Source: Escherichia phage Henu4_2. Taken from it: a stretch of 50,260 bases of DNA. The stretch lies in sequence record PQ159479. The stretch is one strand, 5' to 3'. Made by a program: the position numbers and the translations under genes. Shown piece after piece: positions 1,192 to 50,260 of the stretch; position 1 is the first letter of the stretch, and the number at the start of each line of letters is the position of its first letter. The notes under the pieces are model-generated. The model made no database searches, had not been told where the DNA came from, and was given only the letters and a program-made list of their open reading frames with translations.

Positions 1192-1235
1192 ATAGCACTT
1201 TTTGTTAAAACTGAATCGGGGTAGTTTGGCATAAT
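1192..1235 (+). promoter_or_regulatory. conserved early element copy 1 (motif + stem-loop GGGGTA/TACCCC containing CATAAT)
   Basis: ATAGCACTTTTTGTTAAAA then -10-like CATAAT 22 nt after TTGTTA; ATCGAAAC leader; ATG at 1267. Confidence 0.5.
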
Positions 1236-1266
1236 TACCCCATCGAAACACAACGGAGAAAATAAA

Positions 1267-1601: not shown

Positions 1602-1645
1602 ATAGCACTAATTGCTAAAACTAAATCGTGGGTATTTGATAAAGT
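1602..1645 (+). promoter_or_regulatory. conserved early element copy 2 (stem GGGTA/TACCC, TAAAGT)
   Basis: ATAGCACTAATTGCTAAAA; TAAAGT 22 nt after TTGCTA, preceded by TG. Confidence 0.5.
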
Positions 1646-1681
1646 ACCCACCGTTGAGTTAAGCAAAATGAGAAACAAACC

Positions 1682-2245
1682 ATGTTAAACATCAATAAAA
1701 TCAACTTCCCGATCACATTCAATGCCGGAATGGCTGGAAAGATAACATTTGCAAACGATCAGGATGGTGGCGTTTGGGAGAACGGAGAGAAAAGTGACTT
1801 CAAACTAAGCTACTTTGTAAAACAGCATAACCACCACAACATTCACAACAAAGTTGGTGCGCGATATCACTACGAAATGGCTGAGCCACGGAGAGAGCAA
1901 GACGACCAGGTTGACGCGCTGCAATATCTTCTTTCACGCGGCTGTGAGCTTTTCATTGGCGATGTGAAAATCAACAACGAGCTTATTGATGATACTGTAA
2001 AAGCTAATCGTGATATGTTCTGCAACATTGAGTGCATGCCAGTTGGCGCTACCATCCTGGCTATCAAGCGCAGTGCAGAAGGTTGGGACGATGTTACATT
2101 CACACCGCGCCGAATTGAGATTCACGATGATATGATCACATTGCTTTCCGGCTATGCTGGCGGCTATAGCAAAGATGGAAACAATTACGCACTTGAAATT
2201 AACATTAAGCGCGGCACGAAAGTAAAATACAGCACGAATTGCTAA
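1682..2245 (+). CDS. hypothetical protein
   Basis: 187-aa ORF; its stop codon lies inside the next motif copy. Confidence 0.55.
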   Translation: MLNINKINFPITFNAGMAGKITFANDQDGGVWENGEKSDFKLSYFVKQHNHHNIHNKVGARYHYEMAEPRREQDDQVDALQYLLSRGCELFIGDVKINNELIDDTVKANRDMFCNIECMPVGATILAIKRSAEGWDDVTFTPRRIEIHDDMITLLSGYAGGYSKDGNNYALEINIKRGTKVKYSTNC

Positions 2246-2272
2246 AATAGAATCTTGGGGTTGCGGTATAGT
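2229..2272 (+). promoter_or_regulatory. conserved early element copy 3 (stem GGGGTT/AACCCC, TATAGT)
   Basis: ACAGCACGAATTGCTAAAA; TATAGT 22 nt after TTGCTA. Confidence 0.5.
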
Positions 2273-2304
2273 AACCCCACGCCAAACGAAAGAAGGAAAT
2301 CAAA

Positions 2305-3609: not shown

Positions 3610-3653
3610 ATAGCACTTTTTGCTAAAACTTGCTAAGGCACATTTGATAAAGT
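3609..3653 (+). promoter_or_regulatory. conserved early element copy 5 (8-bp stem AAGGCACA/TGTGCCTT, TAAAGT)
   Basis: AATAGCACTTTTTGCTAAAA; TGaTAAAGT 22 nt after TTGCTA. Confidence 0.5.
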
Positions 3654-3687
3654 GTGCCTTGTCGAGACAAGCAAAGGAGAATGACAA

Positions 3688-4178: not shown

Positions 4179-4746
4179 AATTATCATCCTTAATGCGCCT
4201 CCTGGTGCTGGTAAAGATACGATAGGCAAGATGATTTCTTTCTATTCGCCAGGCGAGCAATGCCGCATTATTAGCTTTAAAGAGCCGATGTTTGACATTG
4301 CATTAGCTATCCTGGGTAAAGAGAACTATCAGCGCTTCATGTTGGCTTATGATGACAGAGAGCAGAAAGAAAGGCCGCAAACATTCCTGATGGGTATGTC
4401 ACCGCGTGAGTTCATGATATGGATTAGCGAGGATGTAATCAAACCTAAATTCGGCAAGGATTATTTCGGCGTAAGGTTTAACCAGAAAGTAAAAGAGTGT
4501 GATGCTCCTGTTGTTTGCACTGATGGAGGTTTCCCAGATGAAATTATCGCGCTAATCAATGCTGGTAATGAAGTGAAGCTATGCCGCTTGCATCGCGACG
4601 GGTTCACGTTTGCAGGTGATAGCCGCAACTACATTCGAATCAATCCATACTACCAGAAAAACGGATATAGTGAACACGATTACTTATTAACCAATGAAAA
4701 GCCGATGATTACAGTTAGCGAAATCATTCGCGATCACCTTAAATAG
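4171..4746 (+). CDS. P-loop nucleotide kinase (dNMP-kinase-like)
   Basis: Walker A NAPPGAGKDT at N-terminus, resembling phage dNMP kinases; 191 aa. Confidence 0.6.
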   Translation: MAKIIILNAPPGAGKDTIGKMISFYSPGEQCRIISFKEPMFDIALAILGKENYQRFMLAYDDREQKERPQTFLMGMSPREFMIWISEDVIKPKFGKDYFGVRFNQKVKECDAPVVCTDGGFPDEIIALINAGNEVKLCRLHRDGFTFAGDSRNYIRINPYYQKNGYSEHDYLLTNEKPMITVSEIIRDHLK

Positions 4747-4786
4747 CACGAATTGCTAAAACTTGCGCAAGGCCATTTGATATAGT
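4743..4786 (+). promoter_or_regulatory. conserved early element copy 6 (stem AAGGCCA/TGGCCTT, TATAGT)
   Basis: ATAGCACGAATTGCTAAAA; TGaTATAGT 22 nt after TTGCTA. Confidence 0.5.
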
Positions 4787-4824
4787 GGCCTTATTCAAGA
4801 GAAGCTACCAATCAGGAGAAAGTC

Positions 4825-5684: not shown

Positions 5685-6182
5685 ATGATCGCTAAAAATG
5701 ACCTTTGCAACCTGTTAACGGCTGGTAATGATTATCAGGTTTTGAATAGCACAAAAGACCGTTATTTTATTGAGTGTGACAATGGGGATCGCATGTGGCT
5801 TAAAAAAGGCTTTTTCGAAAGTGAGCATCTATGCAATGCAAAGCGAATCGCAGATGAAGCAAGCGCATTAGCAGAGCGTGAACGAATTCGCGATATAGTA
5901 GCGGAGCAGGTTAGAAATTCATGTTTGCCTGGTGGCGATATCTTCAAATCAATGCGCGGTGAAATGACGGTTGGAATTCAAGATCGCGTAATTGAAAAAT
6001 CAGTTGATCCTGTAATTGAGAATGCGCGATTCAATGCGTTGATTAACTCAGAGACTAACGAATACATTAAAGTGTTAGAGCAACTGCGTGAAGTGCTGCG
6101 AGTGCCGGAAGGTGAAAATATTGTCACTCATGCAAAAGTTGTAAGAGCGTTGGCTGATGCGCTGATTGGTCTGCAAAAATAG
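5685..6182 (+). CDS. hypothetical protein
   Basis: 165-aa ORF from ATG 5685 with RBS AAGGAGAG; stop TAG inside motif copy 7. Confidence 0.5.
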   Translation: MIAKNDLCNLLTAGNDYQVLNSTKDRYFIECDNGDRMWLKKGFFESEHLCNAKRIADEASALAERERIRDIVAEQVRNSCLPGGDIFKSMRGEMTVGIQDRVIEKSVDPVIENARFNALINSETNEYIKVLEQLREVLRVPEGENIVTHAKVVRALADALIGLQK

Positions 6183-6222
6183 CACTTTTTGTTAAAACTT
6201 CCGCGAGGGCATTTGTTAAAGT
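6179..6222 (+). promoter_or_regulatory. conserved early element copy 7 (TGtTAAAGT)
   Basis: ATAGCACTTTTTGTTAAAA; TAAAGT 22 nt after TTGTTA; weak GAGG/CCTC stem. Confidence 0.45.
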
Positions 6223-6256
6223 ATCCTCATTGAAGCGAAACACGGAGATTTAGGAA

Positions 6257-29836: not shown

Positions 29837-29879
29837 ATAGCACTTTTTGCTAAAAATGCCATTATATGCGTGGTATACT
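29837..29879 (+). promoter_or_regulatory. conserved early element copy 8 (stem GCGTG/CACGC, TATACT)
   Basis: ATAGCACTTTTTGCTAAAA; TGgTATACT; ATCAACCAAC leader. Confidence 0.5.
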
Positions 29880-29913
29880 ACACGCATCAACCAACGAGAG
29901 AGAGGAAATAAAA

Positions 29914-35091: not shown

Positions 35092-35149
35092 TTCTCAATC
35101 TCCAAATAAAAAACCTGGCACGATGATAAACCATGCCAGGCCGGAATTT

Positions 35150-35758
35150 TTAGCAATCAGTGCTATCGACGGAAATCACAACGCGTTTCTTCTGATTGGC
35201 TTCCTTTGCTTTGCGCCGTTCTTCTTTCTCCTTGTCGCGTTCAGCCTTGCGCCGCGCTTTCTCCTTCTCGCGTTCTTCTGGAGTCATAGACCGTAACGGA
35301 TCGTAAGGCCGGACAAATCCCCTTGCTTCCGCTTCCTCTTTGGTTACAAATCGCATCAGCTTTCTGTTGCTGCAACGATTCTCTAATGGTTTTCCGTTAT
35401 TATCAAACTTGATATCTGGACGGCAATATGAAGCGCGAAAACCGTTAAAACCTTTGCGGCGGTAATCTTTCTGGATCAGTTCAGCGCCTTTAGTTGAAAT
35501 CATGCCGCGCTCTTTCCATCCCCATACTGTTTTAAGGTTAACGCCAATTTCACGCGCCAGGGCAGCGCAACCGCCGTAAGCGTTGACAACTTCATCAAGA
35601 CGCGCTTTTAATCCGGCTCTTACTTCTTCCTTTAATACAAGATAACCGCTAACAGGTGCGCGACGTTTGCGATCTTTACCACGTCTTACGCCGTTGTTAC
35701 CATTGATTGTGCGTTTGTCGATTTCGCCAGTTGAGGCGGCAATTTTGATTTCGCTCAT
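35150..35758 (-). CDS. HTH DNA-binding protein with polybasic C-terminal tail (putative regulator)
   Basis: HTH-like CAALAREIGVNLKTVWGWKERG; C-terminal KR/E-rich; start at ATG 35758 with RBS AGGTGA. Confidence 0.55.
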   Translation of the reverse strand: MSEIKIAASTGEIDKRTINGNNGVRRGKDRKRRAPVSGYLVLKEEVRAGLKARLDEVVNAYGGCAALAREIGVNLKTVWGWKERGMISTKGAELIQKDYRRKGFNGFRASYCRPDIKFDNNGKPLENRCSNRKLMRFVTKEEAEARGFVRPYDPLRSMTPEEREKEKARRKAERDKEKEERRKAKEANQKKRVVISVDSTDC

Positions 35759-35768
35759 ATTTTCACCT

Positions 35769-35811
35769 ATAGCACTTTTTGCTAAAAAACTTGATTGAGT
35801 TTGTGTATGAT
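35769..35811 (+). promoter_or_regulatory. conserved early element copy 9 upstream of helicase operon
   Basis: ATAGCACTTTTTGCTAAAA then TATGAT. Confidence 0.5.
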
Positions 35812-35835
35812 ATGCCGCAAATGGCATTTAGTCAA
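35807..35835 (-). promoter_or_regulatory. sigma70 promoter for HTH gene (TTGACT-17-TATCAT), -10 overlapping the plus-strand -10
   Basis: minus-strand TTGACT (35835-35830), 17-nt spacer, TATCAT (35812-35807). Confidence 0.6.
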
Positions 35836-35846
35836 AAGGATAAAAA

Positions 35847-37820
35847 ATGATTCCTAACATTGAAAAGCAGATTGCAGATCTTGGAGAGGAAAGGATTAAG
35901 GCAATACAGAAGCGTTTCACGGTTGGTGAGATTGTCCCGTATGAATACCAATGCGTTGCTTACGCTGAAATTGCAAAGCGCTTGAGTAAGTATGTTGATC
36001 CGTTTTTCGTAAAAGCGGCGGTATCGGCAGGTAAAACAATCATCTTTGCTATGGTTGCGGCTCAGTGCCGTAAAATGGGGTTGAAAGCGTTATTTCTGGC
36101 GCGTCAATCTGAAATTGTGGATCAGGATTCAAAAGAGATTAGCGCCTTTGGTGTTCCGAATTCCGTTTATTGCGCTGGCCTGAATACCAAAAGCGCTTAT
36201 TTCCCGATTGTTGTCGGATCGGAAGGCACTGTAATTGGTGGATTGAATAAAGCGTTGGGTGATTACGTCCCACAGGTTTTAGGTATAGATGAATGCCATC
36301 AAGTAAACTGGAATGACATTGTGGAAGCCGAGGAAAACGGCGAAAGCATAGAGCAAATGATGACTCCGAAAGGTGAACCAGTTGAAGGGCATCCGTTGCT
36401 GATTGGTTCAGGCCGCGCACAATACACCATTATCATTGCAGAAATGCGCCGCCGTTGCCTTGAGACTTACGGTCATCAGTTGCGCATATTTGGAATGACA
36501 GGATCGGAATATCGCGGAATTGAGCCGATACTTGTCGAAGATAAAAGAATTCCTGGGTTTTGGCGTGAGCAGATCACAAACATTGATACTGATTACTTGG
36601 TTAAATTTGGTTCAGTTGTTCCCACTTATTTTGGCAATGTTGGTGATTTGGGTTATGACTTATCAGAATTTACGCCAGTACATGAATTTGGCGTTGCTGA
36701 TTATGACCAGAAGCAATTAAAGGCAATGAGTGACAAGATTCACAAATCAGGAACCATGACGCAGAAAATAATGCAGATGGTTCATGAGGTGATGAAAAAC
36801 CGCTTGTGCGCTCTTGTTACTTGCGCTGACGAAAGGCACTGCAAAGAGGCGGCGGCGGCGCTTCCTCCTGGCACGAAATATCACATTATCACCGGAAAAA
36901 CTGGAGAGAAACAGCGGCGCTTATGGCTTGAGGATGCCTATGAAGGGCGCGTGAAATACATATTCCAGGTTCAAGCGCTAACAACTGGAGTGAACGTTCC
37001 GCCGTGGGATACTTCTGTTATTTTGCGTAAGATCGGAAGCCTGACGCTATTAACTCAGCTTTTGGGGCGCGGTATGCGTCAATTAAAAACTTACCATAAA
37101 GAAGTATTGGGAATGCACAAAACGGATCACCTTGTTTTGGATTTTTCCGGCACGATGTTTGAAATGGGTAATTTGTATTTCGATCCGATGTTAGAGCAAG
37201 CGCAATTCCAGTTGCGTAAATCACAGGATAAAGATCCGAAATATTGCCCGATTTGCGGCACAGAAAATTCATTCTATGCTCGCCGTTGCATTAATGAAGA
37301 TGAAAACGGAAATCGTTGTGAGCACTTTTGGACTTTTCAAACGTGTGAGGATCAGATTGATGACCGCACAAAGAAAATAACGGTAAAAGGTTGTGGTGCT
37401 AAAAATGACGTTGCGGCGCGTGTATGCCGTTGCTGTAATGTTCAGTTACGCGATCCAAATGATAACTTATCCGGCAAGATGTACCGTAAAAACGATTGGT
37501 GCGACGTGTTAGATTTTAATGTGACGCTGACAAAAAACCAGGCTGGGGTAATATTCTGCTACACGTTGCGTGATAGTGGCGGCGTAGAATTCAGGGCATA
37601 CGAAAAATATTTCCCTGAATCAGAACACAAGATATGTAAAACGCTTTGGACAAAGGCGGTTAGAACACACGTTATAGATCGCCAGGCCGCAAACTTTATG
37701 ATCACTTGCAGAAATGCAATTAAGATCATGAGTTATGCTGGGCAAATATTGCCACCAAAACGTGTTACCCATCGCAAGAACACAAAGAAAGAAGATTTGA
37801 TCGCACAGAAGGAGTTTTAA
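35847..37820 (+). CDS. superfamily II DEAH-type helicase with C-terminal zinc-ribbon region
   Basis: Walker A AAVSAGKT, motif II GIDECHQ; C-terminal CPICGT...C..C cluster. Confidence 0.85.
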   Translation: MIPNIEKQIADLGEERIKAIQKRFTVGEIVPYEYQCVAYAEIAKRLSKYVDPFFVKAAVSAGKTIIFAMVAAQCRKMGLKALFLARQSEIVDQDSKEISAFGVPNSVYCAGLNTKSAYFPIVVGSEGTVIGGLNKALGDYVPQVLGIDECHQVNWNDIVEAEENGESIEQMMTPKGEPVEGHPLLIGSGRAQYTIIIAEMRRRCLETYGHQLRIFGMTGSEYRGIEPILVEDKRIPGFWREQITNIDTDYLVKFGSVVPTYFGNVGDLGYDLSEFTPVHEFGVADYDQKQLKAMSDKIHKSGTMTQKIMQMVHEVMKNRLCALVTCADERHCKEAAAALPPGTKYHIITGKTGEKQRRLWLEDAYEGRVKYIFQVQALTTGVNVPPWDTSVILRKIGSLTLLTQLLGRGMRQLKTYHKEVLGMHKTDHLVLDFSGTMFEMGNLYFDPMLEQAQFQLRKSQDKDPKYCPICGTENSFYARRCINEDENGNRCEHFWTFQTCEDQIDDRTKKITVKGCGAKNDVAARVCRCCNVQLRDPNDNLSGKMYRKNDWCDVLDFNVTLTKNQAGVIFCYTLRDSGGVEFRAYEKYFPESEHKICKTLWTKAVRTHVIDRQAANFMITCRNAIKIMSYAGQILPPKRVTHRKNTKKEDLIAQKEF

Positions 37821-37822
37821 AT

Positions 37823-38230
37823 ATGGTTACTGACAAAGGCGATTATCTGGAGTATTACAACAAATCAGATCCAGACGATAGGAAGGAGGAAGCGCACCAG
37901 GTTGATTCTTATTCATGGCTAACATATGAGTTTACAATGTGGCTTGTTTGGCACACTAAAAACGAGGGGAAGAAAACCATAGGCACAGCCGTAAAGGATC
38001 AGCAAGCGGGTGTGAAAAAGGGAGTTAGCGACATTCTAATTCTGACTGGTTTTATTGGCTGCAAGTATTCATTTATAGCCATTGAGCTTAAACGCGCCAA
38101 CAAGAAAGGCACGAAAGTAAGCCAGGAGCAAAAGGAATTCTTACGACGCGTTAGGGAATGCGGAGGATTTGCCGCCGTATGCTATGGCGTAGAGCAAGTA
38201 AAATTGGCTATCGCAGACGCTACAAAATAG
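37823..38230 (+). CDS. VRR-NUC domain nuclease
   Basis: GVSDILIL...IAIELKRANKKGTKVSQEQKEF matches the VRR-NUC D..E.K and SxEQ pattern. Confidence 0.75.
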   Translation: MVTDKGDYLEYYNKSDPDDRKEEAHQVDSYSWLTYEFTMWLVWHTKNEGKKTIGTAVKDQQAGVKKGVSDILILTGFIGCKYSFIAIELKRANKKGTKVSQEQKEFLRRVRECGGFAAVCYGVEQVKLAIADATK

Positions 38231-38270
38231 CACTTTTTGTTAAAACAGGCGCAACGGAATGCGCCATAAT
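38226..38270 (+). promoter_or_regulatory. conserved early element copy 10 (stem GGCGC/GCGCC, CATAAT)
   Basis: ATAGCACTTTTTGTTAAAA; CATAAT 22 nt after TTGTTA; AACGAAACGGAG leader. Confidence 0.5.
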
Positions 38271-38301
38271 GCACCCATCAGAACGAAACGGAGAATTAAC
38301 C

Positions 38302-39321: not shown

Positions 39322-39588
39322 ATGGAAAAGATTGAAACTATTGTTGAAAATGGCGTTGAATATCGACGCGTTGAATTAACTGAACGTGGTTTATGGTTGC
39401 TTTATCGCGCTATGGTGTGCGATGCGATAGAAAAGGCGAATGAAACTGAAACAGTAGGATCTGATTTGTGGATGTTCACAGATGTGCTTGATATGAGTTT
39501 TGATGAAACAAAAGAGCTTGTATTGAGCAAGTGGGAAGAAAAGATAAATCAAGATCTAAAAGAATTTTTAGCAGATCCGAATAAATAG
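39322..39588 (+). CDS. hypothetical protein
   Basis: 88-aa ORF, stop inside motif copy 11. Confidence 0.45.
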   Translation: MEKIETIVENGVEYRRVELTERGLWLLYRAMVCDAIEKANETETVGSDLWMFTDVLDMSFDETKELVLSKWEEKINQDLKEFLADPNK

Positions 39589-39628
39589 CACTTTTTGTTA
39601 AAAATGCCCCGCTTATGTGGGGCATAAT
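39584..39628 (+). promoter_or_regulatory. conserved early element copy 11 (stem ATGCCCC/GGGGCAT, CATAAT)
   Basis: ATAGCACTTTTTGTTAAAA; CATAAT; TTCAACGAAACGAAACGAGGA leader. Confidence 0.5.
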
Positions 39629-39660
39629 CATTTCAACGAAACGAAACGAGGATTTGTAAA

Positions 39661-42493: not shown

Positions 42494-42689
42494 ACTCAAA
42501 TTTTCTAACATGAATTAGCAATTCACCATCATGATTTGTCAGTTGATGCTCTTGATCCCCAAACGCTCGCATATCGCTATAAAGCAACAGCATTAACGCA
42601 TAGACAAAATCATCATGCGGAATTTGCATTGCTGAACTTTCTTTCAAAATAAGATCTATCAAATGCTGGCTTGCTGAATAATTCTTCAT
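42492..42689 (-). CDS. hypothetical protein (overlaps next ORF by 77 nt)
   Basis: 65-aa ORF in a different frame from 42613-43005. Confidence 0.3.
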   Translation of the reverse strand: MKNYSASQHLIDLILKESSAMQIPHDDFVYALMLLLYSDMRAFGDQEHQLTNHDGELLIHVRKFE

Positions 42690-43005
42690 CGCTCATTTTC
42701 TCTATATTCATAATTTCCAAAACATAACGATTTTTATCACCTTCCAGGCTATATAGTTCGAAATTAAACGGTCTTTTCATCTTGTTTTTACACCAATATT
42801 CGCAGTGTACGCCGTCCAAATATCCAAAACCCATAAGGCGAGAAATAAACTCTTTACTCACACTTGATGCGAAATAGCGGGGAGTTACCCCCGCATTTTT
42901 TGCAAGCCTTTCACATTCACGGTTGCGGAATATAAATCTTGCTAATTCCTGGCGGTTGAATTTCTCGCGAGACTCACAAAAGCGATACAGATCTAATAAG
43001 AACAT
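42613..43005 (-). CDS. hypothetical protein translationally coupled to the DUF3987-like gene
   Basis: 130-aa ORF; ATG 2 nt after upstream stop (TAATCATG). Confidence 0.4.
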   Translation of the reverse strand: MFLLDLYRFCESREKFNRQELARFIFRNRECERLAKNAGVTPRYFASSVSKEFISRLMGFGYLDGVHCEYWCKNKMKRPFNFELYSLEGDKNRYVLEIMNIEKMSDEELFSKPAFDRSYFERKFSNANSA

Positions 43006-43007
43006 GA

Positions 43008-44588
43008 TTACCCCATTAACGCAGGATTGACATAAACAAATTTACCAACGCTGCAAACATAATTCTTTTCTTCAAGCATTGGCAATAATTGTTCTTCAAT
43101 TCGTTTCATAACGCCTGATTGACCTGTAAACGGCTTAACCTTACGCGCACTTTCATATATCGCTCTTGCATTGGTAACGCCTTTATTTTGACGTGAGATC
43201 TTAATGATGATTTCAATTAGCTTGCTCATTTCGGCATCATCGCCAGCGTGACCTGAAGCATTCGCGGCGTTAATATATGTTTTGCTTAATTCGCTGAACA
43301 TCACCAAAGCCTCTTGCATTGTCTCAACTTCAATTTCTCGCGACTTTTGCGGCGTACCGTTTGGATTAAACCAATTGCGGATCGTGTGCAATACTGACGC
43401 AATGCGGATAACTTGCTTATCCATTTTACCCAAAGCACCACGCAACATTGTATGTGAATATTTCCCGCCGTCTGCTAAATCTGGCTCTAATTGCTGTCGA
43501 GCAATATTAAGGACACGCATTGCAGAACGTGACGGCTTCAATACAACATTTTGTTCAGTCATGATGTTATGAATCAACTGGAAATATTGCGCCTTTAATT
43601 CTTTATCAACTGGCGTGTAATCAAGATCACCATTTTCATCAATAAATACACGCTCGCCTAACATTGTTTTTTCACGCACAAGCAAGAAACGTTCACTAAC
43701 ACCGATACCCCGCGCCCCTGCATCCATGATCCCTTTTATCGTTTCATCCTGGGCAATTACGCTCATGCAGCCCAACGCAACAAAACTCATATTGTTTTCA
43801 GAATTGGCGCGAGCTATTGAAACGTGTCCTGCGTCCCATGCTTTTAGAACCAATTCGCTGTTAGTCTTGCGATCACTATTAGCGTAAGTCAATCCGAGTA
43901 AGCTGTTGATGCTTGTTGCTTCATCGGAAATGACAGCAAAGTTACCCTGGCGATTGTTGATCTTTGCTAACCCTTCCGGCGTGGTGTCTGATACCGGAAA
44001 AACGATATCGCACATTTTTTCTAACTTTTCCTCTAATTCCTCCTTTTCCTCAAACAGCGCCGCTAACTCAGTGCCGGAACGTTCAGCTTTCAATTCCTTT
44101 TCAACGCCTTTTAATTTCGCTGCGATCTTCTTTCGCTCTTTCTTGCGTTGTTCGTTGATGCGCTCAACTTCACAGACCATTGGCGCAATAGCCAGGCTGT
44201 TGATTGCTGATTTACCAGTTGATGGCGGCTGACTGGTTACAACATAAAGCGCAGTTGGTTGTTCAGTGCCGTGGTACTCAACTTGGAAGCGTCCAACCAT
44301 AGCGGCGGAAACGCAACCAATGAAATGCATATAGGCCGATGATTCAGGAAATTGAACAGATTGCGCAATGCTACGTGACAGTTTACCCACAACATCAACA
44401 TCATTACCCAAAGAGATCACAGGATAACGGTCATTAGCGCCGTTGATATCCTTTACAGGTTCCCAAAAGCTGGACGATTGGCGGTAGCCGTTCGACTGAA
44501 TAGCAACGCGAAGCGGCGATGTTCCCTGCGATTCTGCAATGGCTATAACTTGTTGAGGTGTCAATTTGTTGGTGTCAAAGTCAAACAT
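43008..44588 (-). CDS. DUF3987-like P-loop protein (replication-associated, function unknown)
   Basis: Walker-A-like SQPPSTGKSA; DTTPEGL, SDEA, KAWDAGHVSIAR, IAQDE, RFLLV match my recollection of the DUF3987 consensus. Confidence 0.55.
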   Translation of the reverse strand: MFDFDTNKLTPQQVIAIAESQGTSPLRVAIQSNGYRQSSSFWEPVKDINGANDRYPVISLGNDVDVVGKLSRSIAQSVQFPESSAYMHFIGCVSAAMVGRFQVEYHGTEQPTALYVVTSQPPSTGKSAINSLAIAPMVCEVERINEQRKKERKKIAAKLKGVEKELKAERSGTELAALFEEKEELEEKLEKMCDIVFPVSDTTPEGLAKINNRQGNFAVISDEATSINSLLGLTYANSDRKTNSELVLKAWDAGHVSIARANSENNMSFVALGCMSVIAQDETIKGIMDAGARGIGVSERFLLVREKTMLGERVFIDENGDLDYTPVDKELKAQYFQLIHNIMTEQNVVLKPSRSAMRVLNIARQQLEPDLADGGKYSHTMLRGALGKMDKQVIRIASVLHTIRNWFNPNGTPQKSREIEVETMQEALVMFSELSKTYINAANASGHAGDDAEMSKLIEIIIKISRQNKGVTNARAIYESARKVKPFTGQSGVMKRIEEQLLPMLEEKNYVCSVGKFVYVNPALMG

Positions 44589-44603
44589 CTAAAAATCTCC
44601 TTC

Positions 44604-44659
44604 TTGTTGCCGCTAATTATAACGGCAACATTCTACAGCCTTTTAGCAATTCGTGCTAT
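44604..44659 (-). promoter_or_regulatory. conserved early element (minus), stem GTTGCCG/CGGCAAC with TATAAT in loop
   Basis: minus-strand ATAGCACGAATTGCTAAAA then hairpin with TATAAT; RBS AAGGAG. Confidence 0.5.
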
Positions 44660-44904
44660 TTGATCGGCTCAACCCTGGCTAATAACTTTCCGTCTATAAT
44701 GCTATGACATTCAAGAGTTTTAGGATCGAATGCAAGCGAACGATGGAACGTATGACCAATCAGCAAATATGAATGCTTATCCCTGATGCGATAGACCGTT
44801 TCACCTTCCTTTAATGAGGATATCGCACTGAAAACAACCTTGTAACGGTATTTTTGCATGGCCTCAGAACGGTGAGGAATGTAATCTTTTTCCGGTAAAC
44901 TCAT
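44656..44904 (-). CDS. hypothetical protein
   Basis: 82-aa ORF; stop TAG inside the motif. Confidence 0.45.
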   Translation of the reverse strand: MSLPEKDYIPHRSEAMQKYRYKVVFSAISSLKEGETVYRIRDKHSYLLIGHTFHRSLAFDPKTLECHSIIDGKLLARVEPIK

Positions 44905-45263
44905 GAGTATTTGGCCTCAAACAGATAAGCACCGCCAGCGGCTGAAAATCCAACTTCTTCCCGATACAGCGTGAAACGGTCGCCGTTTTCGTCGAAAACG
45001 TATCCAGCAACAGCACCTAACACGCGGCCTTGTTCGATCTGGTAACGCTTATCGGCTTTGAAAGTTTTCTTAATCTGCATGGAGTGGTTTACCCATGTGC
45101 ATTTAATGGTTTTGGTCTTAACATTTCGGAATGTTAATCCGGTTAAGTTGGCGTGAATCCATTTCCCATCTAACTTAACGAAAGTATCATCATTTTCGTC
45201 TACCCGCGCTTTGTATAGGCGGTTATCAGATCCGATAAGTTTGATTGATTTGAATTTAGCCAT
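44901..45263 (-). CDS. hypothetical protein
   Basis: 120-aa ORF, RBS AAAGGAGATAA. Confidence 0.45.
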   Translation of the reverse strand: MAKFKSIKLIGSDNRLYKARVDENDDTFVKLDGKWIHANLTGLTFRNVKTKTIKCTWVNHSMQIKKTFKADKRYQIEQGRVLGAVAGYVFDENGDRFTLYREEVGFSAAGGAYLFEAKYS

Positions 45264-45294
45264 TTGATTTATCTCCTTTTGTTTTCGTTGAAAG

Positions 45295-45339
45295 CATTAT
45301 GCCGGATACGTGATCCGGCGTTTTAACAAAAAGTGCTAT
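45295..45339 (-). promoter_or_regulatory. conserved early element (minus), stem GCCGGAT/ATCCGGC, CATAAT
   Basis: minus-strand AATAGCACTTTTTGTTAAAAC + hairpin + CATAAT + TTCAACGAAAAC leader. Confidence 0.5.
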
Positions 45340-46031
45340 TTCTGATTTGCCAGGCATACAGCAAGCGCAAAGCCGCGCGGAGTGAGTGAGCGGATCAGCT
45401 TTGTTCGCTTAGACTTACCGCCTAGCTTTTGCCAGCCTGGATTGTTGTTCCCTGTTGGCAATACTGCGTTTGTATCCGGCATTACAAAACCGTTACCCGT
45501 CCAAAGGCAAGTTTTTTTGGTGTACGCATCGCGAGCGGGAATGATTTCAGGAAAGTGAGGATGTTTATCATCTTCCGGCAACAGACCGCCAAATGCGCAA
45601 GGATGAAAGATAAAATCAGGTTGCCTCCACATCGACGACAGGACGCTAACAGGATTCTCGATCATGTATGGAACGTTAAACCGATCCGCAATATTGGCAG
45701 CAATCTTTGCCGTTTCAACCGCCTTTTTCTGGAAGTCTGGATCACGTTCACGCTTTGCTGCAAAGTGACGCGATCCGCTAACAGCTAAATCAGTGCATGG
45801 AGGGAATGCAATAATAAAATCTGGAGTGCCAAAGACGCGCATCATTGCGTTATGCTGGAATGATAATCCGATCCACTCATTCAAATAAACGATGTTGGGA
45901 TGAGTCACGCGCACTGATTGGTAATCACCATGATCAGCACCGTCGAAATTAAAGCACAGCACTTTGTGACCACGTTCAGCCCACGGCAACGCAGCATAAC
46001 CAGAACCATCAAATAGTGAGAAAATAAGCAT
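45336..46031 (-). CDS. putative DNA cytosine-5 methyltransferase (short form)
   Basis: motif I-like FSLFDGSGYAA, motif IV-like AFPPCTD, motif VI-like YMIENPV; ATG 46031 with RBS AAAGGA. Confidence 0.55.
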   Translation of the reverse strand: MLIFSLFDGSGYAALPWAERGHKVLCFNFDGADHGDYQSVRVTHPNIVYLNEWIGLSFQHNAMMRVFGTPDFIIAFPPCTDLAVSGSRHFAAKRERDPDFQKKAVETAKIAANIADRFNVPYMIENPVSVLSSMWRQPDFIFHPCAFGGLLPEDDKHPHFPEIIPARDAYTKKTCLWTGNGFVMPDTNAVLPTGNNNPGWQKLGGKSKRTKLIRSLTPRGFALAVCLANQK

Positions 46032-46140
46032 GTTTAAATCCTTTCTGTATGACCTTGTAAGGCGTTTTGTTTGTAGGTGTCGCAACTGTATTGGCTACGG
46101 CCTGAAATCGCGACACGACGCTAAACAGGCCGCTATTTTT

Positions 46141-46218
46141 TTACTTACAGAATGGGCATGTTGTTTTATCCCCGATTCCGCCGTGTTTTGGGCAGCAAAT
46201 TTTTTCGATAGGTGTCAT
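46141..46218 (-). CDS. zinc-ribbon mini-protein (25 aa)
   Basis: MTPIEKICCPKHGGIGDKTTCPFCK with strong RBS AAGGAG 8 nt upstream. Confidence 0.35.
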   Translation of the reverse strand: MTPIEKICCPKHGGIGDKTTCPFCK

Positions 46219-46230
46219 TTTAAATACTCC

Positions 46231-46473
46231 TTAGAATGGGAAACAACGCTTGCAAGATGGATCGAAGTTACAACCGCAATCATTGATTATTGCGTTAGGA
46301 TCAGCAAGCATCACGCTACTTTCTTGATCCATATCCATAGCGCCTAATGCGTCATCAAGCGTTATTTCAAGATAGGCAACTTTAAGCGCCCATTCTTTGT
46401 TAAGTCCAGCCGCCTCCGCTTCATGTAGGCGAGCAAAGAAAGCATCTTGAACCATATCAACCCCACTTCTCAA
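46231..46473 (-). CDS. hypothetical protein with C-terminal Cys cluster
   Basis: 80 aa ending CGCNFDPSCKRC. Confidence 0.45.
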   Translation of the reverse strand: MRSGVDMVQDAFFARLHEAEAAGLNKEWALKVAYLEITLDDALGAMDMDQESSVMLADPNAIINDCGCNFDPSCKRCFPF

Positions 46474-46678
46474 TAAACATGCTCATTTCGTCAATCATCG
46501 CGTAAGCATCACTTTCAGTTATTCGGCGGATTCTACCGCCTGGATGTTCGCCAACAGCGTAACCAGTTTTTACGCGGGTAATCGTTAACTGATGGAATCC
46601 AGAAGCGCGATCCATTTTCAAAACTACTTTCCCGTGAGCTTTGACAATGTTCATGATGGATTCAGTTTTCAGTTTCAT
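46457..46678 (-). CDS. hypothetical protein
   Basis: 73-aa ORF after motif copy; RBS TGGAGAA. Confidence 0.45.
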   Translation of the reverse strand: MKLKTESIMNIVKAHGKVVLKMDRASGFHQLTITRVKTGYAVGEHPGGRIRRITESDAYAMIDEMSMFIEKWG

Positions 46679-46709
46679 TTTTGATTCTCCATTTTGTTTG
46701 TGTGAAAGT

Positions 46710-46757
46710 ATGATACCAATCAGAGCGATATCGTTTTTAGCAATTCGTGCTGTTTAC
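46710..46757 (-). promoter_or_regulatory. conserved early element (minus), TGgTATCAT
   Basis: minus-strand ACAGCACGAATTGCTAAAAA then extended -10 TGGTATCAT. Confidence 0.5.
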
Positions 46758-46904
46758 GGCGATAAACGGATAGCCTGTTAAATCTGCATTTCTATAACGC
46801 GCAGACCTAACCCAACAGCCGCCTTTGCTCATAATTAAAGCGTTTTTATGACGCAGGTTTACGCGGTAAATTCTTCCGGTTTTTATGTTTTTGAAATATG
46901 TCAT
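46737..46904 (-). CDS. small hypothetical protein (55 aa)
   Basis: ATGA-coupled to upstream gene; stop inside motif; below the ORF-track cut-off. Confidence 0.35.
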   Translation of the reverse strand: MTYFKNIKTGRIYRVNLRHKNALIMSKGGCWVRSARYRNADLTGYPFIAVNSTNC

Positions 46905-47098
46905 AGATACGTGATCCTATCTTCTGTTACCCACTCGCAACGCTGGCGCTCAATTGTTTTGCCATATTTTTTATTAATATGATCGCTGTTGTAATCTTCA
47001 AGAGCTTGCAACGCATTTGCTAAATTATTAGCAGTTGCAATAAGTGTTTTATCATTCGCGTCAATTCTGCTAACCAAATAACACGCATAACGGATCAT
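46901..47098 (-). CDS. hypothetical protein
   Basis: 65-aa ORF. Confidence 0.4.
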   Translation of the reverse strand: MIRYACYLVSRIDANDKTLIATANNLANALQALEDYNSDHINKKYGKTIERQRCEWVTEDRITYL

Positions 47099-47328
47099 AA
47101 TTTAACCTCATGATATTCTATAAATTCTTGCACATATGCGCATTCTCGCGGAGACTCCTGGCCTTTTAACACTTCACAGCCACCATTAAACAGATAGCAG
47201 TGCTGGCAAAGGTTGCCGCCTACGTTTTCCTCAGCGATCTGAATTCCGGTACACAAACCGCCACCAAACCTATGAGGAAAATCGTAAGCCTGGCAGCGGC
47301 ACGTTGCTTGATGCCGCTTACGTTTCAT
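47095..47328 (-). CDS. Cys-rich (putative zinc-binding) protein
   Basis: 77 aa with CRC...C..C...C..C...C pattern. Confidence 0.45.
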   Translation of the reverse strand: MKRKRHQATCRCQAYDFPHRFGGGLCTGIQIAEENVGGNLCQHCYLFNGGCEVLKGQESPRECAYVQEFIEYHEVKL

Positions 47329-47609
47329 TAAATGTTCTCACTGATAAACTGGATAACCTGGCGAAGATGTTTTTCATCTTTAATGAATGCTGGCAATTCT
47401 TCCATAACTTCTTTTTTCAGATAAATGTTTGCATTCCATGTGAATGATCCATCACCATTTACGCGGTAAGAACAAAGCCATTCGCAATCATTATCCACTT
47501 CCCAAATGCACAGCGTTTCAAATTCTTCAAACTTGTTGTAACCCGTTTCAATGCTTAACTCAATGCCACGTTTGCCAGCGAAATTAGTAGTTGTTTTTGA
47601 TACCATCAT
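47328..47609 (-). CDS. hypothetical protein
   Basis: 93-aa ORF after motif copy; RBS CCGGAGAA. Confidence 0.45.
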   Translation of the reverse strand: MMVSKTTTNFAGKRGIELSIETGYNKFEEFETLCIWEVDNDCEWLCSYRVNGDGSFTWNANIYLKKEVMEELPAFIKDEKHLRQVIQFISENI

Positions 47610-47640
47610 TTTTAAATTCTCCGGTTCGTTTCGATGAATG

Positions 47641-47686
47641 CATTATGCCAAAACAAACCGGATCGCTTTTAACAAAAAGTGCTATT
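47641..47686 (-). promoter_or_regulatory. conserved early element (minus), CATAAT
   Basis: minus-strand AAATAGCACTTTTTGTTAAAAGC ... GGCATAATG ... TTCATCGAAACGAACC leader. Confidence 0.5.
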
Positions 47687-47867
47687 TAGTGAGTTGATCA
47701 AGCCAATATCTCATTTTTTGCCAGCGTTTAAACCATTGTCTATCTTTTGACAGTTTTTGATCTTTACAATGAAGCATTGCATATAGCAAATACTCTTTTT
47801 CGTTTTCTATTCTCTCAATGAGTCGGCGGCACTTGCCTTTATTAGTAAAGCGGCGCAACAGTTTCAT
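47682..47867 (-). CDS. hypothetical protein
   Basis: 61-aa ORF, stop TAG in motif. Confidence 0.4.
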   Translation of the reverse strand: MKLLRRFTNKGKCRRLIERIENEKEYLLYAMLHCKDQKLSKDRQWFKRWQKMRYWLDQLTK

Positions 47868-48061
47868 TAATCACTCTCCATGACAATTACAGGCTCCAGG
47901 CGCTCAAGCACCACTTTGAAATCGGCGTAAAAAGTAGGGCGGCGTTTTGTTAATTCCTCATATGTATCAGTTGCCAGGCAAGCGCGATCACCTTCATAGC
48001 ACACAACGCGTTTACCATTTGCGCGACTGATTGCAACTACGCGATATGTATTATTGATCAT
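47867..48061 (-). CDS. hypothetical protein
   Basis: 64-aa ORF, RBS GAGGTGA. Confidence 0.4.
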   Translation of the reverse strand: MINNTYRVVAISRANGKRVVCYEGDRACLATDTYEELTKRRPTFYADFKVVLERLEPVIVMESD

Positions 48062-48294
48062 TTTATCACCTCAATTGAATAAATACTTTCAACGCCTGGC
48101 GCGTATAACCGCTTTCCATCTTCAGTTATGCAAAGACAAAGGGCAAGGCCGCGATTGTCTGAAATATGCAAGTCATTTTGTCTATCCATCAAAATTTCAT
48201 ATTCGCGATCTTCATCAAAGCGCCAAACGCTTAACATGCACTTTCCAGATGATTTAACTTTTACTTTCTTTCCGGTGAAATTTAAACGACTCAT
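48058..48294 (-). CDS. hypothetical protein
   Basis: 78-aa ORF, RBS GAGGTGG. Confidence 0.45.
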   Translation of the reverse strand: MSRLNFTGKKVKVKSSGKCMLSVWRFDEDREYEILMDRQNDLHISDNRGLALCLCITEDGKRLYAPGVESIYSIEVIK

Positions 48295-48515
48295 TGCGCC
48301 ACCTCAACAGTTTCAAATACGGTATTGAATGCCAGAAGTTTAAATTTATTGCCTGGTTCAACCACTGCGATATTCCAGGTAATGCCGCCGTGATATGCAA
48401 CCATATCATCAATATCGACGGTGATTTGTGCGCCCTTCTTGAATAAACCTTTCTCATGAGTAGCGTCACGTTCAGTAACTACAGTTTCGAATTGCGTTTG
48501 TTGTTCAAAGTTCAT
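48291..48515 (-). CDS. hypothetical protein
   Basis: 74-aa ORF after motif copy, RBS AAGGAGAA. Confidence 0.45.
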   Translation of the reverse strand: MNFEQQTQFETVVTERDATHEKGLFKKGAQITVDIDDMVAYHGGITWNIAVVEPGNKFKLLAFNTVFETVEVAQ

Positions 48516-48545
48516 CGTTGATTCTCCTTATTGGTTGATGTGTGT

Positions 48546-48590
48546 ATTATGCCGGATTGCTCAGGCGATGTTTTAACAAAAAGTGCTATT
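48546..48590 (-). promoter_or_regulatory. conserved early element (minus), CATAAT
   Basis: minus-strand AATAATAGCACTTTTTGTTAAAAC ... GGCATAATAC ... ATCAACCAATAAGGAG. Confidence 0.5.
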
Positions 48591-48873
48591 ATTCCCCAAC
48601 GATCCCAAAGATAGAAATTATTGAGTTTGTACGGCTGCGGCGATATTTGCGCATAACAACCGTTAAGTTTTCGCCTTGCTGATGACCTAACGTGATCGGC
48701 ATTTCAGATCCATCACCGAATTCATCACCAACCTTTTTTGGCTTTTCCCGCCACGCGCAAATGAAACCAAATTTATCACGCGTGATATATCGGTATATGT
48801 TAGGAAGGGGAATATTAACCCCTTCAAAGTCTACCGTTTGCGTGTAACTGCGAAAATTAAGCGTGGAATTCAT
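48589..48873 (-). CDS. hypothetical protein
   Basis: 94-aa ORF, RBS GGGGAGGTGA. Confidence 0.45.
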   Translation of the reverse strand: MNSTLNFRSYTQTVDFEGVNIPLPNIYRYITRDKFGFICAWREKPKKVGDEFGDGSEMPITLGHQQGENLTVVMRKYRRSRTNSIISIFGIVGE

Positions 48874-49015
48874 AAATCACCTCCCCAAATTCTCCGATTA
48901 CTTGCGCCTTGTAATATCCGCCACGGTTAGCCAACAAATACGCCTGACTAAGTGTTTCAAACACGCGGGTTACTGGCTGGCTGTTTTCGTGTTCCCAGGT
49001 AATCAAAGTAGTCAT
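48857..49015 (-). CDS. small hypothetical protein (52 aa)
   Basis: ATG at 49015 after motif copy and GAGGA RBS; below the ORF-track cut-off. Confidence 0.35.
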   Translation of the reverse strand: MTTLITWEHENSQPVTRVFETLSQAYLLANRGGYYKAQVIGEFGEVIYEFHA

Positions 49016-49040
49016 TGCTAAATCCTCATTTCGTTTCGAT

Positions 49041-49093
49041 GGGATAACTATATCAAGTTACCCCGATCCGGTTTTAACAAAAAATGCTATTTA
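49041..49093 (-). promoter_or_regulatory. conserved early element (minus), stem GGGGTAAC/GTTATCCC with TATAGT in loop
   Basis: minus-strand AAATAGCATTTTTTGTTAAAAC + hairpin + ATCGAAACGAAATGAGGA. Confidence 0.5.
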
Positions 49094-49525
49094 CAGCCAT
49101 TCGCCGGAAACAATGAAATCAGTGAAATCGTCATGATCCAAAATGCTGTGATAGCCAGTGCAATAATCATTTTTAACCATGTGACCACGCAAACGCACAT
49201 AATCAGCCTTTCGATCCGTAATCCAACGAATAAAGCGAGCGTTACGTTGTGGTATCGTTCCGGCGTAAGCCTCTTTGAATCCAATGTGTGCGATGAATGC
49301 CACAAAGCGGATTTGCAAGCCTGGATTGTCTTTCTTTGCCTCGTTAACAAGATCTCGGAAGTTTTCACGCGTTGGCTTGACCGGAACCAATTCGCCTAAC
49401 TCGATCATTCGGTTGAAGTCTGAAATGCTGGAATATGATTGCATAAACAGCCCATCGCTACCAAACATCACAACGCCGTTTTCGATGAAGTAAGTTTGTC
49501 CGTTGTATTTGTTTGTGTATTTCAT
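49091..49525 (-). CDS. hypothetical protein (first gene of right-arm early cluster)
   Basis: 144 aa from ATG 49525 with RBS GAGGAA (ORF is open from 49561). Confidence 0.5.
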   Translation of the reverse strand: MKYTNKYNGQTYFIENGVVMFGSDGLFMQSYSSISDFNRMIELGELVPVKPTRENFRDLVNEAKKDNPGLQIRFVAFIAHIGFKEAYAGTIPQRNARFIRWITDRKADYVRLRGHMVKNDYCTGYHSILDHDDFTDFIVSGEWL

Positions 49526-49556
49526 CGTGAATTCCTCAGTTCGTTTCGATGAAGTA

Positions 49557-49602
49557 ATCATAGCAATTCGTGACTGATTGGTTTTAACAAAAAGTGCTAT
49601 TC
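49557..49602 (-). promoter_or_regulatory. conserved early element (minus) with adjacent half-copy, TATGAT
   Basis: minus-strand GAATAGCACTTTTTGTTAAAACC followed by CACGAATTGCTATGAT and TTCATCGAAACGAAC leader. Confidence 0.5.
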
Positions 49603-49608
49603 ATGCGA

Positions 49609-49638
49609 TAGACCGATTGGTCTAGACCGTTTGGTCTA
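49609..49638. promoter_or_regulatory. two overlapping 16-bp palindromes (operator-like)
   Basis: TAGACCGATTGGTCTA and TAGACCGTTTGGTCTA sharing a central TA. Confidence 0.5.
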
Positions 49639-49670
49639 ATGAACACATCGTTTCTTGTATCGAACGGATT

Positions 49671-49706
49671 CACGATCACGTTATGCGATCACAATATGAT
49701 CACGTT
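49671..49706. repeat. cluster of three GATCAC (Dam-site) repeats at 11-13 bp spacing
   Basis: GATC at 49674, 49687, 49698, each in a CGATCAC context. Confidence 0.5.
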
Positions 49707-49720
49707 GATGATTGATGTGT

Positions 49721-49770
49721 GAGTTGATGTGATGTGATTTGATTAGATTTGATTAGATTTGAGTAGCGAG
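49721..49770. repeat. five tandem 10-bp iteron-like repeats
   Basis: GAGTTGATGT / GATGTGATTT / GATTAGATTT / GATTAGATTT / GAGTAGCGAG. Confidence 0.5.
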
Positions 49771-49919
49771 AGAGTGGAAATAATCACACCTTGCCGATCT
49801 CGTGAAAACTTTTCCGCAAAACATCACACCCTGGCTTGCGCGTTGTCTAAAACGTTCCACGATGTTCACGGGTTTACCTTCCGTAAAAAAGCGAAACAGA
49901 AAACAACAATGAATCACCC

Positions 49920-50080
49920 TATAACATACTAAAAAGTAAGATAATTTTATTTATATATCTATAAAAGTTTCTAGTTGTTTAGCTTGTTCTCTATATATAG
50001 GGATACCCCACGTATATTTTCTAACTTTATATGGTTATGTGTATGCTCCAGGGTATATGTATATATATGGGTATGTTCCG
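49920..50080. repeat. AT-rich low-complexity region (control region B, related to 28430-28620)
   Basis: shares TATATATCTAT, GTTCTCTAT and TATATATGGTATG blocks with region A. Confidence 0.5.
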
Positions 50081-50199
50081 AAATCGGCGTAGTTTTTGAA
50101 AACGCGCCGCAAAACATTGAAATCAAAGGCGATAAACACAAAAAGGCGTCTAAACAGAACAATATTCTGATTGTAGACATAAGAACAACAGAAAAAACT

Positions 50200-50228
50200 T
50201 TGACTATGCGCCAGCACATCAGCATAAT
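50200..50228 (+). promoter_or_regulatory. near-consensus sigma70 promoter (TTGACT-17-CATAAT) for gene 1
   Basis: TTGACT 50200-50205, CATAAT 50223-50228; ATCAAAACCAATCAGGAGAAAACCCT leader runs to the window end; ATG at position 1 on circularisation. Confidence 0.65.
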
Positions 50229-50260
50229 GCACACATCAAAACCAATCAGGAGAAAACCCT

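Follow-up and report, generated by a model that had tools for sequence, protein, structure and literature searches.

The 50,260-nucleotide (nt) sequence of Escherichia phage Henu4_2 (PQ159479), analysed here at its full length and called the window below, belongs to a T1-like siphophage of the genus Tlsvirus (Drexlerviridae). It carries 19 good copies of a short asymmetric repeat, hereafter the box, which stands at a fixed distance from a -10 hexamer and from the start codon of a co-oriented gene. We conclude with high confidence that the box is the activator site of promoters lacking a -35 element, a core that holds whether the activator comes from the host or from the phage. As to what reads the box, we lean towards the host proteins Rob, MarA and SoxS: the promoters resemble class II marbox promoters of the Mar/Sox/Rob regulon, and from the sequence we infer both the binding of such a protein and the dependence of the promoters on it.

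The copies of the repeat are real and far beyond chance. All seven minus-strand copies that an earlier note on this DNA had reported for the right arm were found where it placed them, oriented with their genes and 52-57 nt 5′ of start codons that are exactly those it listed (promoters 1-7, Table 1). Written as plus-strand text, the element TTTTAACAAAAAGTGCTAT occurs exactly at promoters 2, 4, 5 and 7 and with one mismatch at promoter 6, and the boxes of promoters 1 and 3 are a core variant (ATAGCAC/ACAGCAC-GAATT-GCTAAAA) with 4-5 mismatches to it. Sites with at most 3 mismatches to the element number 15 in the window vs. 0.05 ± 0.22 in 100 dinucleotide-preserving shuffles, and the count of good copies reaches 19 once the GAATT-core variants are included. 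A scoring matrix was built solely from 33 E. coli MarA sites determined by chromatin immunoprecipitation sequencing (ChIP-seq; PMC5684230, Table 1 therein). The matrix scan against shuffled background, which the earlier note had proposed as a check, gave 21 matches of at least 14 bits vs. 1.9 ± 1.4 in 200 dinucleotide shuffles. The figure of 18 or more copies with fixed geometry was also correct, as 18 of the 19 precede a co-oriented gene, with 52-63 nt between the end of the box and the start codon. Two wider claims hold in part. The genome-wide signal stands as far as fixed geometry and presence on both divergent arms are concerned, but it is not arm-specific: boxes lie also 5′ of recombination, primase, helicase, Dam-methylase and neighbouring genes (Table 1). 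Similarly, both arms do carry the same box, but instead of two divergent early regions they form a single one on the circular map, around 49600-50260 and 1-1190. An Rfam scan of the whole window returned no RNA family, and the repeat accordingly matches no known RNA motif.

The promoters share one layout, in which the 19-nt box, ATAGCAC-N5-G(T/C)TAAAA, is followed by a 19-nt spacer, a -10 hexamer, a leader of ~25 nt and ATG. The distance from the box to the -10 is 19 nt at 17 of the 19 boxes and 18 nt at the other two. The hexamers seen (CATAAT, TATAGT, TAAAGT, TATAAT, TATCAT, TATGAT and TATACT) show A as second and T as sixth base in 18/19 cases and are preceded by TGn in 11/19. Under a stricter scan, 17 of the 21 matrix matches of at least 14 bits had a -10-like hexamer at 19 nt, vs. 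a background of 2.3% per position (P ~1e-22). With start sites predicted from the position of the -10, the box spans ~-50 to -32, where the -35 belongs, in ~18 transcription units of both arms and the recombination/replication/lysis region. No -35 was found at these promoters. At 16-18 nt from the -10, none of the 19 matches TTGACA in at least 4 of 6 positions, the mean best match (2.4/6) is that of random positions (2.5/6), and sigma-70 scans, which covered 1-8500, 34900-36000 and 42500-50260, pick up none of the 19 box promoters. Two motifs within the box were considered and rejected: TTG(T/C)TA (TTGTTA) is separated from the -10 by 22 nt, which is too much for a -35, and TAAAAN, tried as a -10, has no T at its last position. 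Placed 6-7 nt 3′ of the -10 is a conserved leader, (C)ATCGAAAC(G/A)AA, whose A is the predicted start and which leads into the Shine-Dalgarno sequence and the start codon. This initial transcribed ATCGAAAC(G/A)AA is common to many box promoters (among them 47635-47622, 49040-49027 and 1242-1255) and is kept in T1 and Rtp. The leader may act on translation or on RNA stability.

The marbox is the site of monomeric AraC-family proteins with two helix-turn-helix (HTH) motifs, namely MarA, SoxS and Rob, with RamA in Salmonella and Klebsiella. Its 20-base-pair (bp) consensus is AYNGCACNNWNNRYYAAAYN (PMC2064960, PMC3709825), its working definition gcannwwntgnnaaa (PMC12052159), and ChIP-seq-based forms are GCAHWWWWTGYYAAA and the consensus gcactaattgctaaa (the latter PMC5684230). 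The 19-mer box covers 19 of the 20 positions of AYNGCACNNWNNRYYAAAYN and agrees at all specified positions but one, position 19. Exact matches to gcannwwntgnnaaa number 20 in the window vs. 0.61 in shuffles. The 19 phage boxes are the top 19 matches of the MarA matrix in the window, with 15.1-19.4 bits; the E. coli MarA sites themselves, scored leave-one-out, reach a median of 10.8 and at most 19.0 bits. The core GCACTAATTGCTAAA of box 1602-1620 (site 1605-1619) equals the MarA ChIP-seq consensus gcactaattgctaaa at 15 of 15 positions, and other phage boxes are at most one base away from sites bound in vivo, for example that of ypeC. Frequency matrices of the phage box and the marbox correlate with r = 0.88 in the forward register and with no more than 0.17 at other offsets or in the other orientation. 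Among the boxes of the window the GCA and AAA cores are invariant, and variation falls mostly on degenerate marbox positions (Y 2, H 7, the central N/W and Y 14).

Besides the site itself, its placement was compared with that in host promoters. Class II promoters of the Mar/Sox/Rob regulon have a forward box that overlaps the -35 position and lack a recognisable -35 (PMC12052159 among others), with the box centre at -36 to -55 or, by another definition, 30-42 bp 5′ of the start site. The phage boxes likewise point toward the gene with the core centre near -40 relative to the predicted start, all 19 are without a -35 hexamer, and 18 of the 19 retain a sigma-70-type -10 with A2 and T6. As register controls we used micF, for the exact register, and fumC; the nfo and sodA boxes could not be placed with confidence and so were not used. 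In E. coli K-12 micF the 19-mer ACAGCACTGAATGTCAAAA is followed by 19 nt and TAGAAT, the annotated RNA start being 8 nt past the hexamer. The register from box to -10 in the phage is identical to this, and fumC has 19-20 nt. In the complex of Rob, RNA polymerase and micF solved by cryo-electron microscopy, Rob touches -47G and -45A within GCAC; it also sits on the second element, over the -35, and keeps sigma-70 region 4 out (PMC9178005). Counted from the predicted starts, GCAC of the phage boxes occupies -47 to -44, which makes the promoters superimposable on a structurally defined class II complex. Class II promoters of E. coli and Salmonella, such as micF and also lpxC P2, lpxL P1 and rfaY P1, share with the phage set the asymmetric box composed of GCAC, a 7-bp A/T-rich spacer and YAAA, and the lack of a -35 hexamer. 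The phage set differs from them in belonging to a phage of a virulent group rather than to host stress genes, in having ~19 near-consensus copies within 50 kb, whereas host boxes are degenerate, and in carrying A, not Y, at position 19. The ATCGAAAC leader and the hairpins across the spacer and the -10, described below, are extras of the phage promoters.

On the host reading, an activator of the Mar/Sox/Rob type would bind GCAC (-47 to -44) and TAAA (-36 to -33), stand in for sigma-70 region 4 where the -35 is missing, and contact sigma and the alpha subunit's C-terminal domain, after which RNA polymerase would use the -10 element. Host stress regulators would in this way turn on ~18 transcription units, early and middle, of the two arms and the replication/lysis region. 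Rob, which is constitutive and abundant, would be the most likely activator. All three of marA, soxS and rob have homologues in the documented enterobacterial hosts.

The element itself has a history. The repeat has reportedly been noted since the T1 genome paper of 2004 (Virology). The window shares 98.8% identity with the Tlsvirus member Escherichia phage vB_EcoS_011D2 and ~96% with Citrobacter phage Stevie, whose record has six orthologous right-arm copies annotated as repeat_region. For Stevie, 16 copies of VWATAGCAYKWWTTGYTAAAAV were described, together with a comparable T1 repeat of 20 copies, and the role was given as unknown (PMC4319613). For TLS, the Tlsvirus type member, which is described as virulent, 21 copies of aaATAGCACnnnTTGnTAAAA were reported in 2024, with function listed among the open questions for T1-like phages; the repeat starts ~76 nt from the start codon, in agreement with the geometry in the window, only three sigma-70-like promoters were found in the genome, and the authors suggested stoperators, enhancer sites or UP elements (PMC11447400). 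With 19 copies, the window boxes match this T1-family intergenic direct repeat consensus (VWATAGCAYKWWTTGYTAAAAV / aaATAGCACnnnTTGnTAAAA), and the direct repeats of 21-22 bp in T1, TLS, Stevie, Rtp and Rogue1 are the same element, intergenic and transcription-oriented in Stevie and TLS. The published accounts of Stevie and TLS do not include the fixed 19-nt register to the -10, the missing -35 or the marbox, and in full-text searches of the accessible literature the repeat was never linked to the marbox, MarA, SoxS or Rob. Searches for the marbox, MarA, SoxS or Rob in connection with phage, Drexlerviridae or start-site mapping likewise returned nothing relevant in the searchable texts, which contained no report on binding, transcription or start sites in a T1-like phage. 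The element is already known in the phage family; for its function the evidence favours a specific, testable answer, the class II marbox promoter, with a phage-encoded reader as the serious alternative.

Outside the window, the matrix found 24 matches in T1 (Tunavirinae) and 22 in Rtp (Braunvirinae), with 15 in each lying 19 nt from a -10, and KP36 (Webervirus, Klebsiella) and Motto likewise contain boxes. The lineages with the common box share only about half their nucleotide sequence; identity of Stevie and T1, for instance, is only ~48% (PMC4319613). The matches listed from a pattern scan of IMG/VR were mostly ~50-kb T1-like contigs, plus single matches taken as chance. It may be, and we put this forward tentatively, that in Drexlerviridae as a family the -35 of nearly all early and middle promoters has been replaced by near-consensus host Mar/Sox/Rob sites.

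Several points weigh against a host reader. In unstressed cells Rob is reportedly sequestered for the most part, the phage boxes are far less variable than host marboxes, and the start sites, and with them the register numbering, are predictions from the -10 position. Two features of the window would also suit a phage regulator: the box contains a 5-N5-5 pseudo-dyad (TAGCA/TG(C/T)TA), fit for a dimeric HTH protein, and two canonical sigma-70 promoters each lead to a possible DNA-binding protein, as is classic for a cascade with a phage-encoded activator. The last point concerns 'Pseudomonas phage Motto' (ON843697), which has ~18 identical boxes and is reported to form plaques on 32 of 50 P. 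aeruginosa isolates and on no E. coli, Klebsiella, Citrobacter or Vibrio (PMC10978715). Should this host assignment hold, the reader could not be a host Mar/Sox/Rob protein in every case. A genome scan with KWHLQRMF, the MarA/Rob recognition helix in a GC-codon version, gave Enterobacterales and three Streptomyces among the matches listed and no Pseudomonas among them, which is weak evidence of absence. The assignment can itself be questioned, as the tape measure gene of Motto (10100-13036) encodes 978 amino acids (aa), corresponding to a tail of ~147 nm at 0.15 nm per residue. The tail was reported as ~255 nm (PMC10978715). Because of this mismatch, the genome's 45% G+C and the notoriety of T1-like phages as laboratory contaminants, it is doubtful that the sequenced Motto genome is that of the phage growing on P. 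aeruginosa.

The alternative that survives best, though we regard it as rather unlikely, keeps the promoter architecture and has the box read by a phage-encoded activator, either the Cro-like HTH protein of 35150-35758(-) or the immediate-early DUF7174 protein (1-474). Such a protein would bind as a dimer to TAGCA-N5-TG(C/T)TA near -42, and the likeness to the marbox would be coincidence or mimicry. The pseudo-dyad, the identical boxes of Motto and the two canonical promoters speak for it. These two are the strong sigma-70 promoters placed 5′ of a gene in the scanned regions, each with 10/12 matches (Table 1), and they probably drive immediate-early genes. The one at 50200-50228 has the -10 and the leader of the box promoters, the latter in the form ATCAAAACC, but a true -35 replaces the box. 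The model for a phage HTH activator made from an early promoter is given by lambda cI at PRM and by Mor and C of Mu, whose sites near -42 to -43.5 overlap the -35 and which contact sigma and alpha. Those sites, however, are dyad-symmetric and co-evolve with the phage protein, whereas the box is invariant across lineages, and its asymmetry coincides exactly with that of the marbox: C7 has no mirror-image G11, A17-A18 have no mirror-image T at positions 0 and 1, and the invariant G4 has its mirror-image C at about half of the sites only. A chance match to 13 of the 14 specified positions of AYNGCACNNWNNRYYAAAYN together with the micF register would also be very unlikely.

The two proteins were compared across lineages. 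The Cro-like regulator, a P22_Cro/YdaS-type HTH protein, is the main phage-encoded candidate reader. It is 45-56% identical across lineages with no likely base-contacting HTH position invariant, and its predicted recognition helix differs among the window, T1, Rtp, Motto and Vc1 while the box stays the same. The model of the DUF7174 protein (predicted local distance difference test, pLDDT, 80.6) shows weak winged-helix-like similarity, and T1 DUF7174 is barely recognisable, being below the Pfam cut-off and giving nothing in hhalign. Pfam and PHROGs searches of all non-structural open reading frames, including the small immediate-early ones, gave no AraC/HTH_18, MotA, AsiA, sigma factor or RNA polymerase. 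When 50,697 phage records were searched by tblastn with E. coli MarA, no Klebsiella record and only 13 Escherichia records, not inspected singly, were returned; the T1-type regulator is present in more than 800 of the phage records. Just 5′ of promoter 7, at 49609-49638, lie two overlapping 16-bp palindromes, TAGACCGATTGGTCTA and TAGACCGTTTGGTCTA, each found nowhere else in the window. They were rejected as a conserved operator, since T1, Rtp and Motto do not keep them (in the equivalent region Motto carries other palindromes, TGATT..AATCA), and they qualify as a candidate lineage-specific operator. A recognition helix and palindromes specific to each lineage, next to an invariant box, form the pattern expected if a conserved host protein is the reader. 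Were a phage activator at work after all, it would be one with a marbox-mimicking site, which would also be new.

The middle promoters of T4, in which a MotA box TTTGCTTTA near -30 is read by phage MotA with AsiA and the sigma-70 -10 is kept, provide another comparison. There, as in the window, an activator box replaces the -35 across a whole promoter class. Unlike the MotA box, the phage box lies near -40 and matches a host activator site, and no MotA or AsiA was found in the Pfam scans.

We judge it improbable that no activator is involved and that the box is a contact for RNA polymerase, UP-element-like or a -35 substitute, which together with an extended -10 would make strong constitutive promoters. 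TGn before 11 of the 19 hexamers and the A/T-rich 3′ half of the box would fit this, and UP-like elements were among the proposals of the TLS authors. The invariant GCAC core and G13 are not A/T-rich, however, TTG(T/C)TA is 22 nt from the -10, the -35 match is no better than random, and 8 promoters do without TGn. The box was rejected as a UP element proper, an A/T-rich site for the alpha subunit at ~-40 to -60 with no invariant G/C, given that G4, C5 and G13 are invariant, C7 is present in 17/19 and the span is -50 to -32.

Stable inverted repeats were found in the spacer or around the -10 at 14-15 of the 19 promoters, with stems that differ by site (for coordinates of several cores, among others, see Table 1). 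The mean folding energy is -11.4 kcal/mol vs. -4.4 kcal/mol for random 38-mers (P = 1.7e-7). Most of these hairpins have no U-tract. Some are terminator-like, such as that of the primase promoter, which has one, and equivalent T1 hairpins are annotated as rho-independent terminators; others enclose the -10 without a U-tract and lie wholly 5′ of the predicted start, so that they would act on read-through transcripts or on DNA. As the spacer sequence of class II promoters is free, the phage may, speculatively, pack the 3′ hairpin of the upstream unit there. The hairpins, and several T1 terminator annotations among them, would also suit a negative or termination-linked element, either a stoperator-like roadblock or part of a terminator module, since the boxes are asymmetric, intergenic and co-oriented with transcription like the stoperators of mycobacteriophage L5, which are likewise short, many-copy and of one orientation. 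This we consider very unlikely. In the temperate phage L5, stoperators serve as repressor roadblocks and stand in no fixed relation to a -10, whereas the box keeps fixed distances to the -10 (19 nt) and to the start codon, which are properties of a promoter, not of a roadblock. TLS is described as virulent, most hairpins have no U-tract, and Pfam scans of the non-structural proteins gave no integrase or immunity-repressor domain.

Least probable of all is a non-transcriptional or decoy role, in which Rob would be tethered for replication or genome organisation, or Mar/Sox/Rob titrated: ~19 high-scoring sites per genome copy and the discovery of Rob as an oriC-binding protein would fit, but gene co-orientation and the -10 register would go unexplained and ~18 units would be left with no alternative promoters; a decoy effect could still arise as a side effect of activation by the host proteins.

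The class II marbox reading of the box would show where the missing promoters of T1-like phages lie. If it is true, a phage group described as virulent relies on the host's regulators of stress and antibiotic resistance to transcribe most of its early and middle genes; its expression would be licensed by the antibiotic, bile or oxidative-stress state of the host, which it could thereby sense, and ~19 sites per replicating genome might drain the regulators from host defence genes. Phage susceptibility would be tied to the mar/sox/rob state, which matters for phage-antibiotic combinations, for bile in the gut and for the control of T1 contamination. TolC, which the Tlsvirus type phage uses as its receptor, is induced by the Mar/Sox/Rob regulon, and for TolC-using phages the same regulon controls the receptor too.

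Table 1. Box promoters, the orphan box and canonical sigma-70 promoters of the window. For the canonical promoters the -35, the spacing and the -10 are given together.
Feature	Span (strand)	Box	Spacer (nt)	-10 element	Predicted +1	Gene start	Remarks
Right arm, promoter 1	44609..44659 (-)	44641-44659 ATAGCACGAATTGCTAAAA	19	TATAAT 44616-44621	near 44609	44588	526-aa DUF3987 helicase-like protein; 18.7 bits (MarA matrix); inverted-repeat core 44605-44640
Right arm, promoter 2	45289..45339 (-)	45321-45339 ATAGCACTTTTTGTTAAAA		CATAAT 45296-45301	45289	45263	spacer hairpin CCGGAT..ATCCGG; inverted-repeat core 45290-45320
Right arm, promoter 3	46703..46753 (-)	46735-46753 ACAGCACGAATTGCTAAAA		TGn + TATCAT 46710-46715	46703	46678	
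Right arm, promoter 4	47635..47685 (-)	47667-47685		TGn + CATAAT 47642-47647	47635 (A of ATCGAAAC)	47609	TAG within box is stop codon of upstream gene 47682-47867
Right arm, promoter 5	48539..48589 (-)	48571-48589		CATAAT 48546-48551	48539	48515	
Right arm, promoter 6	49040..49090 (-)	49072-49090 ATAGCATTTTTTGTTAAAA		TGn + TATAGT 49047-49052	49040	49015	DUF7170; -10 enclosed by hairpin; inverted-repeat core 49035-49071
Right arm, promoter 7	49550..49600 (-)	49582-49600		TGn + TATGAT 49557-49562	49550	49525	first of right arm
Left arm	1192..1242 (+)	1192-1210		CATAAT 1230-1235		1267	inverted-repeat core 1211-1245
Left arm	1602..1652 (+)	1602-1620		TAAAGT 1640-1645		1682	19.4 bits; inverted-repeat core 1621-1655
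Left arm	2229..2279 (+)	2229-2247		TATAGT 2267-2272		2305	
Left arm	3610..3660 (+)	3610-3628		TAAAGT 3648-3653		~3681-3688	inverted-repeat core 3629-3665
Left arm	4743..4793 (+)	4743-4761		TATAGT 4781-4786		4825	
Left arm	6179..6229 (+)	6179-6197		TAAAGT 6217-6222		6257	
Middle region	29837..29886 (+)	29837-29855	18	TATACT 29874-29879		29914	5′ of ERF recombinase and SSB genes
Primase promoter	35116..35166 (-)	35148-35166		TATCAT 35123-35128		35091	-10 inside terminator hairpin with 13-bp stem (35142-35112)
Helicase promoter	35769..35818 (+)	35769-35787	18	TATGAT 35806-35811		35847	overlaps divergent sigma-70 promoter of Cro-like regulator gene
Box promoter	38227..38277 (+)	38227-38245		CATAAT 38265-38270		38302	5′ of Dam methylase gene
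Box promoter	39585..39635 (+)	39585-39603		CATAAT 39623-39628		39661	
Orphan box	(-)	14627-14645		TAGAAC (poor)			points against late operon
Canonical sigma-70	50200-50228 (+)			TTGACT-17-CATAAT			operon 1-474 (DUF7174), 475-723, 723-956
Canonical sigma-70	35807-35835 (-)			TTGACT-17-TATCAT			Cro-like regulator gene 35150-35758(-), T1 gp23 homologue

The orphan box is situated between a decoration-like gene and the major capsid gene and adjoins a hairpin at 14650-14672; its equivalents in T1 are at 15083(-) and 18847(-). It might give rise to an antisense transcript or be a binding site with another role.

Some further observations concern the regulators and genes named above. The Cro-like regulator has an N-terminal motif, DKRxINGNNGxxRxxDxKxR, that is invariant in T1, Rtp, Motto, Vc1 and others, and in the window phage it ends in a long lysine/glutamate-rich C-terminal tail, which T1 is without. 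A T1-type regulator is carried also by ~20 unannotated 47-kb 'Campylobacter phage' records (MG065663, MG065665, MG065667 and others), which look T1-like and whose host labels are doubtful. The product of the gene behind promoter 5 (48291-48515, minus strand) matches PF25180, 'Phage antiviral trigger protein Gp54' (E = 1e-30). Finally, the 600-bp non-coding divergent region contains, at 49712-49765 and 49950-50075, short tandem repeats of the GATTTGATTAGATTTGA type and a TATATA-rich stretch that holds several inverted repeats, and may serve as an origin, as a pac site or in regulation.

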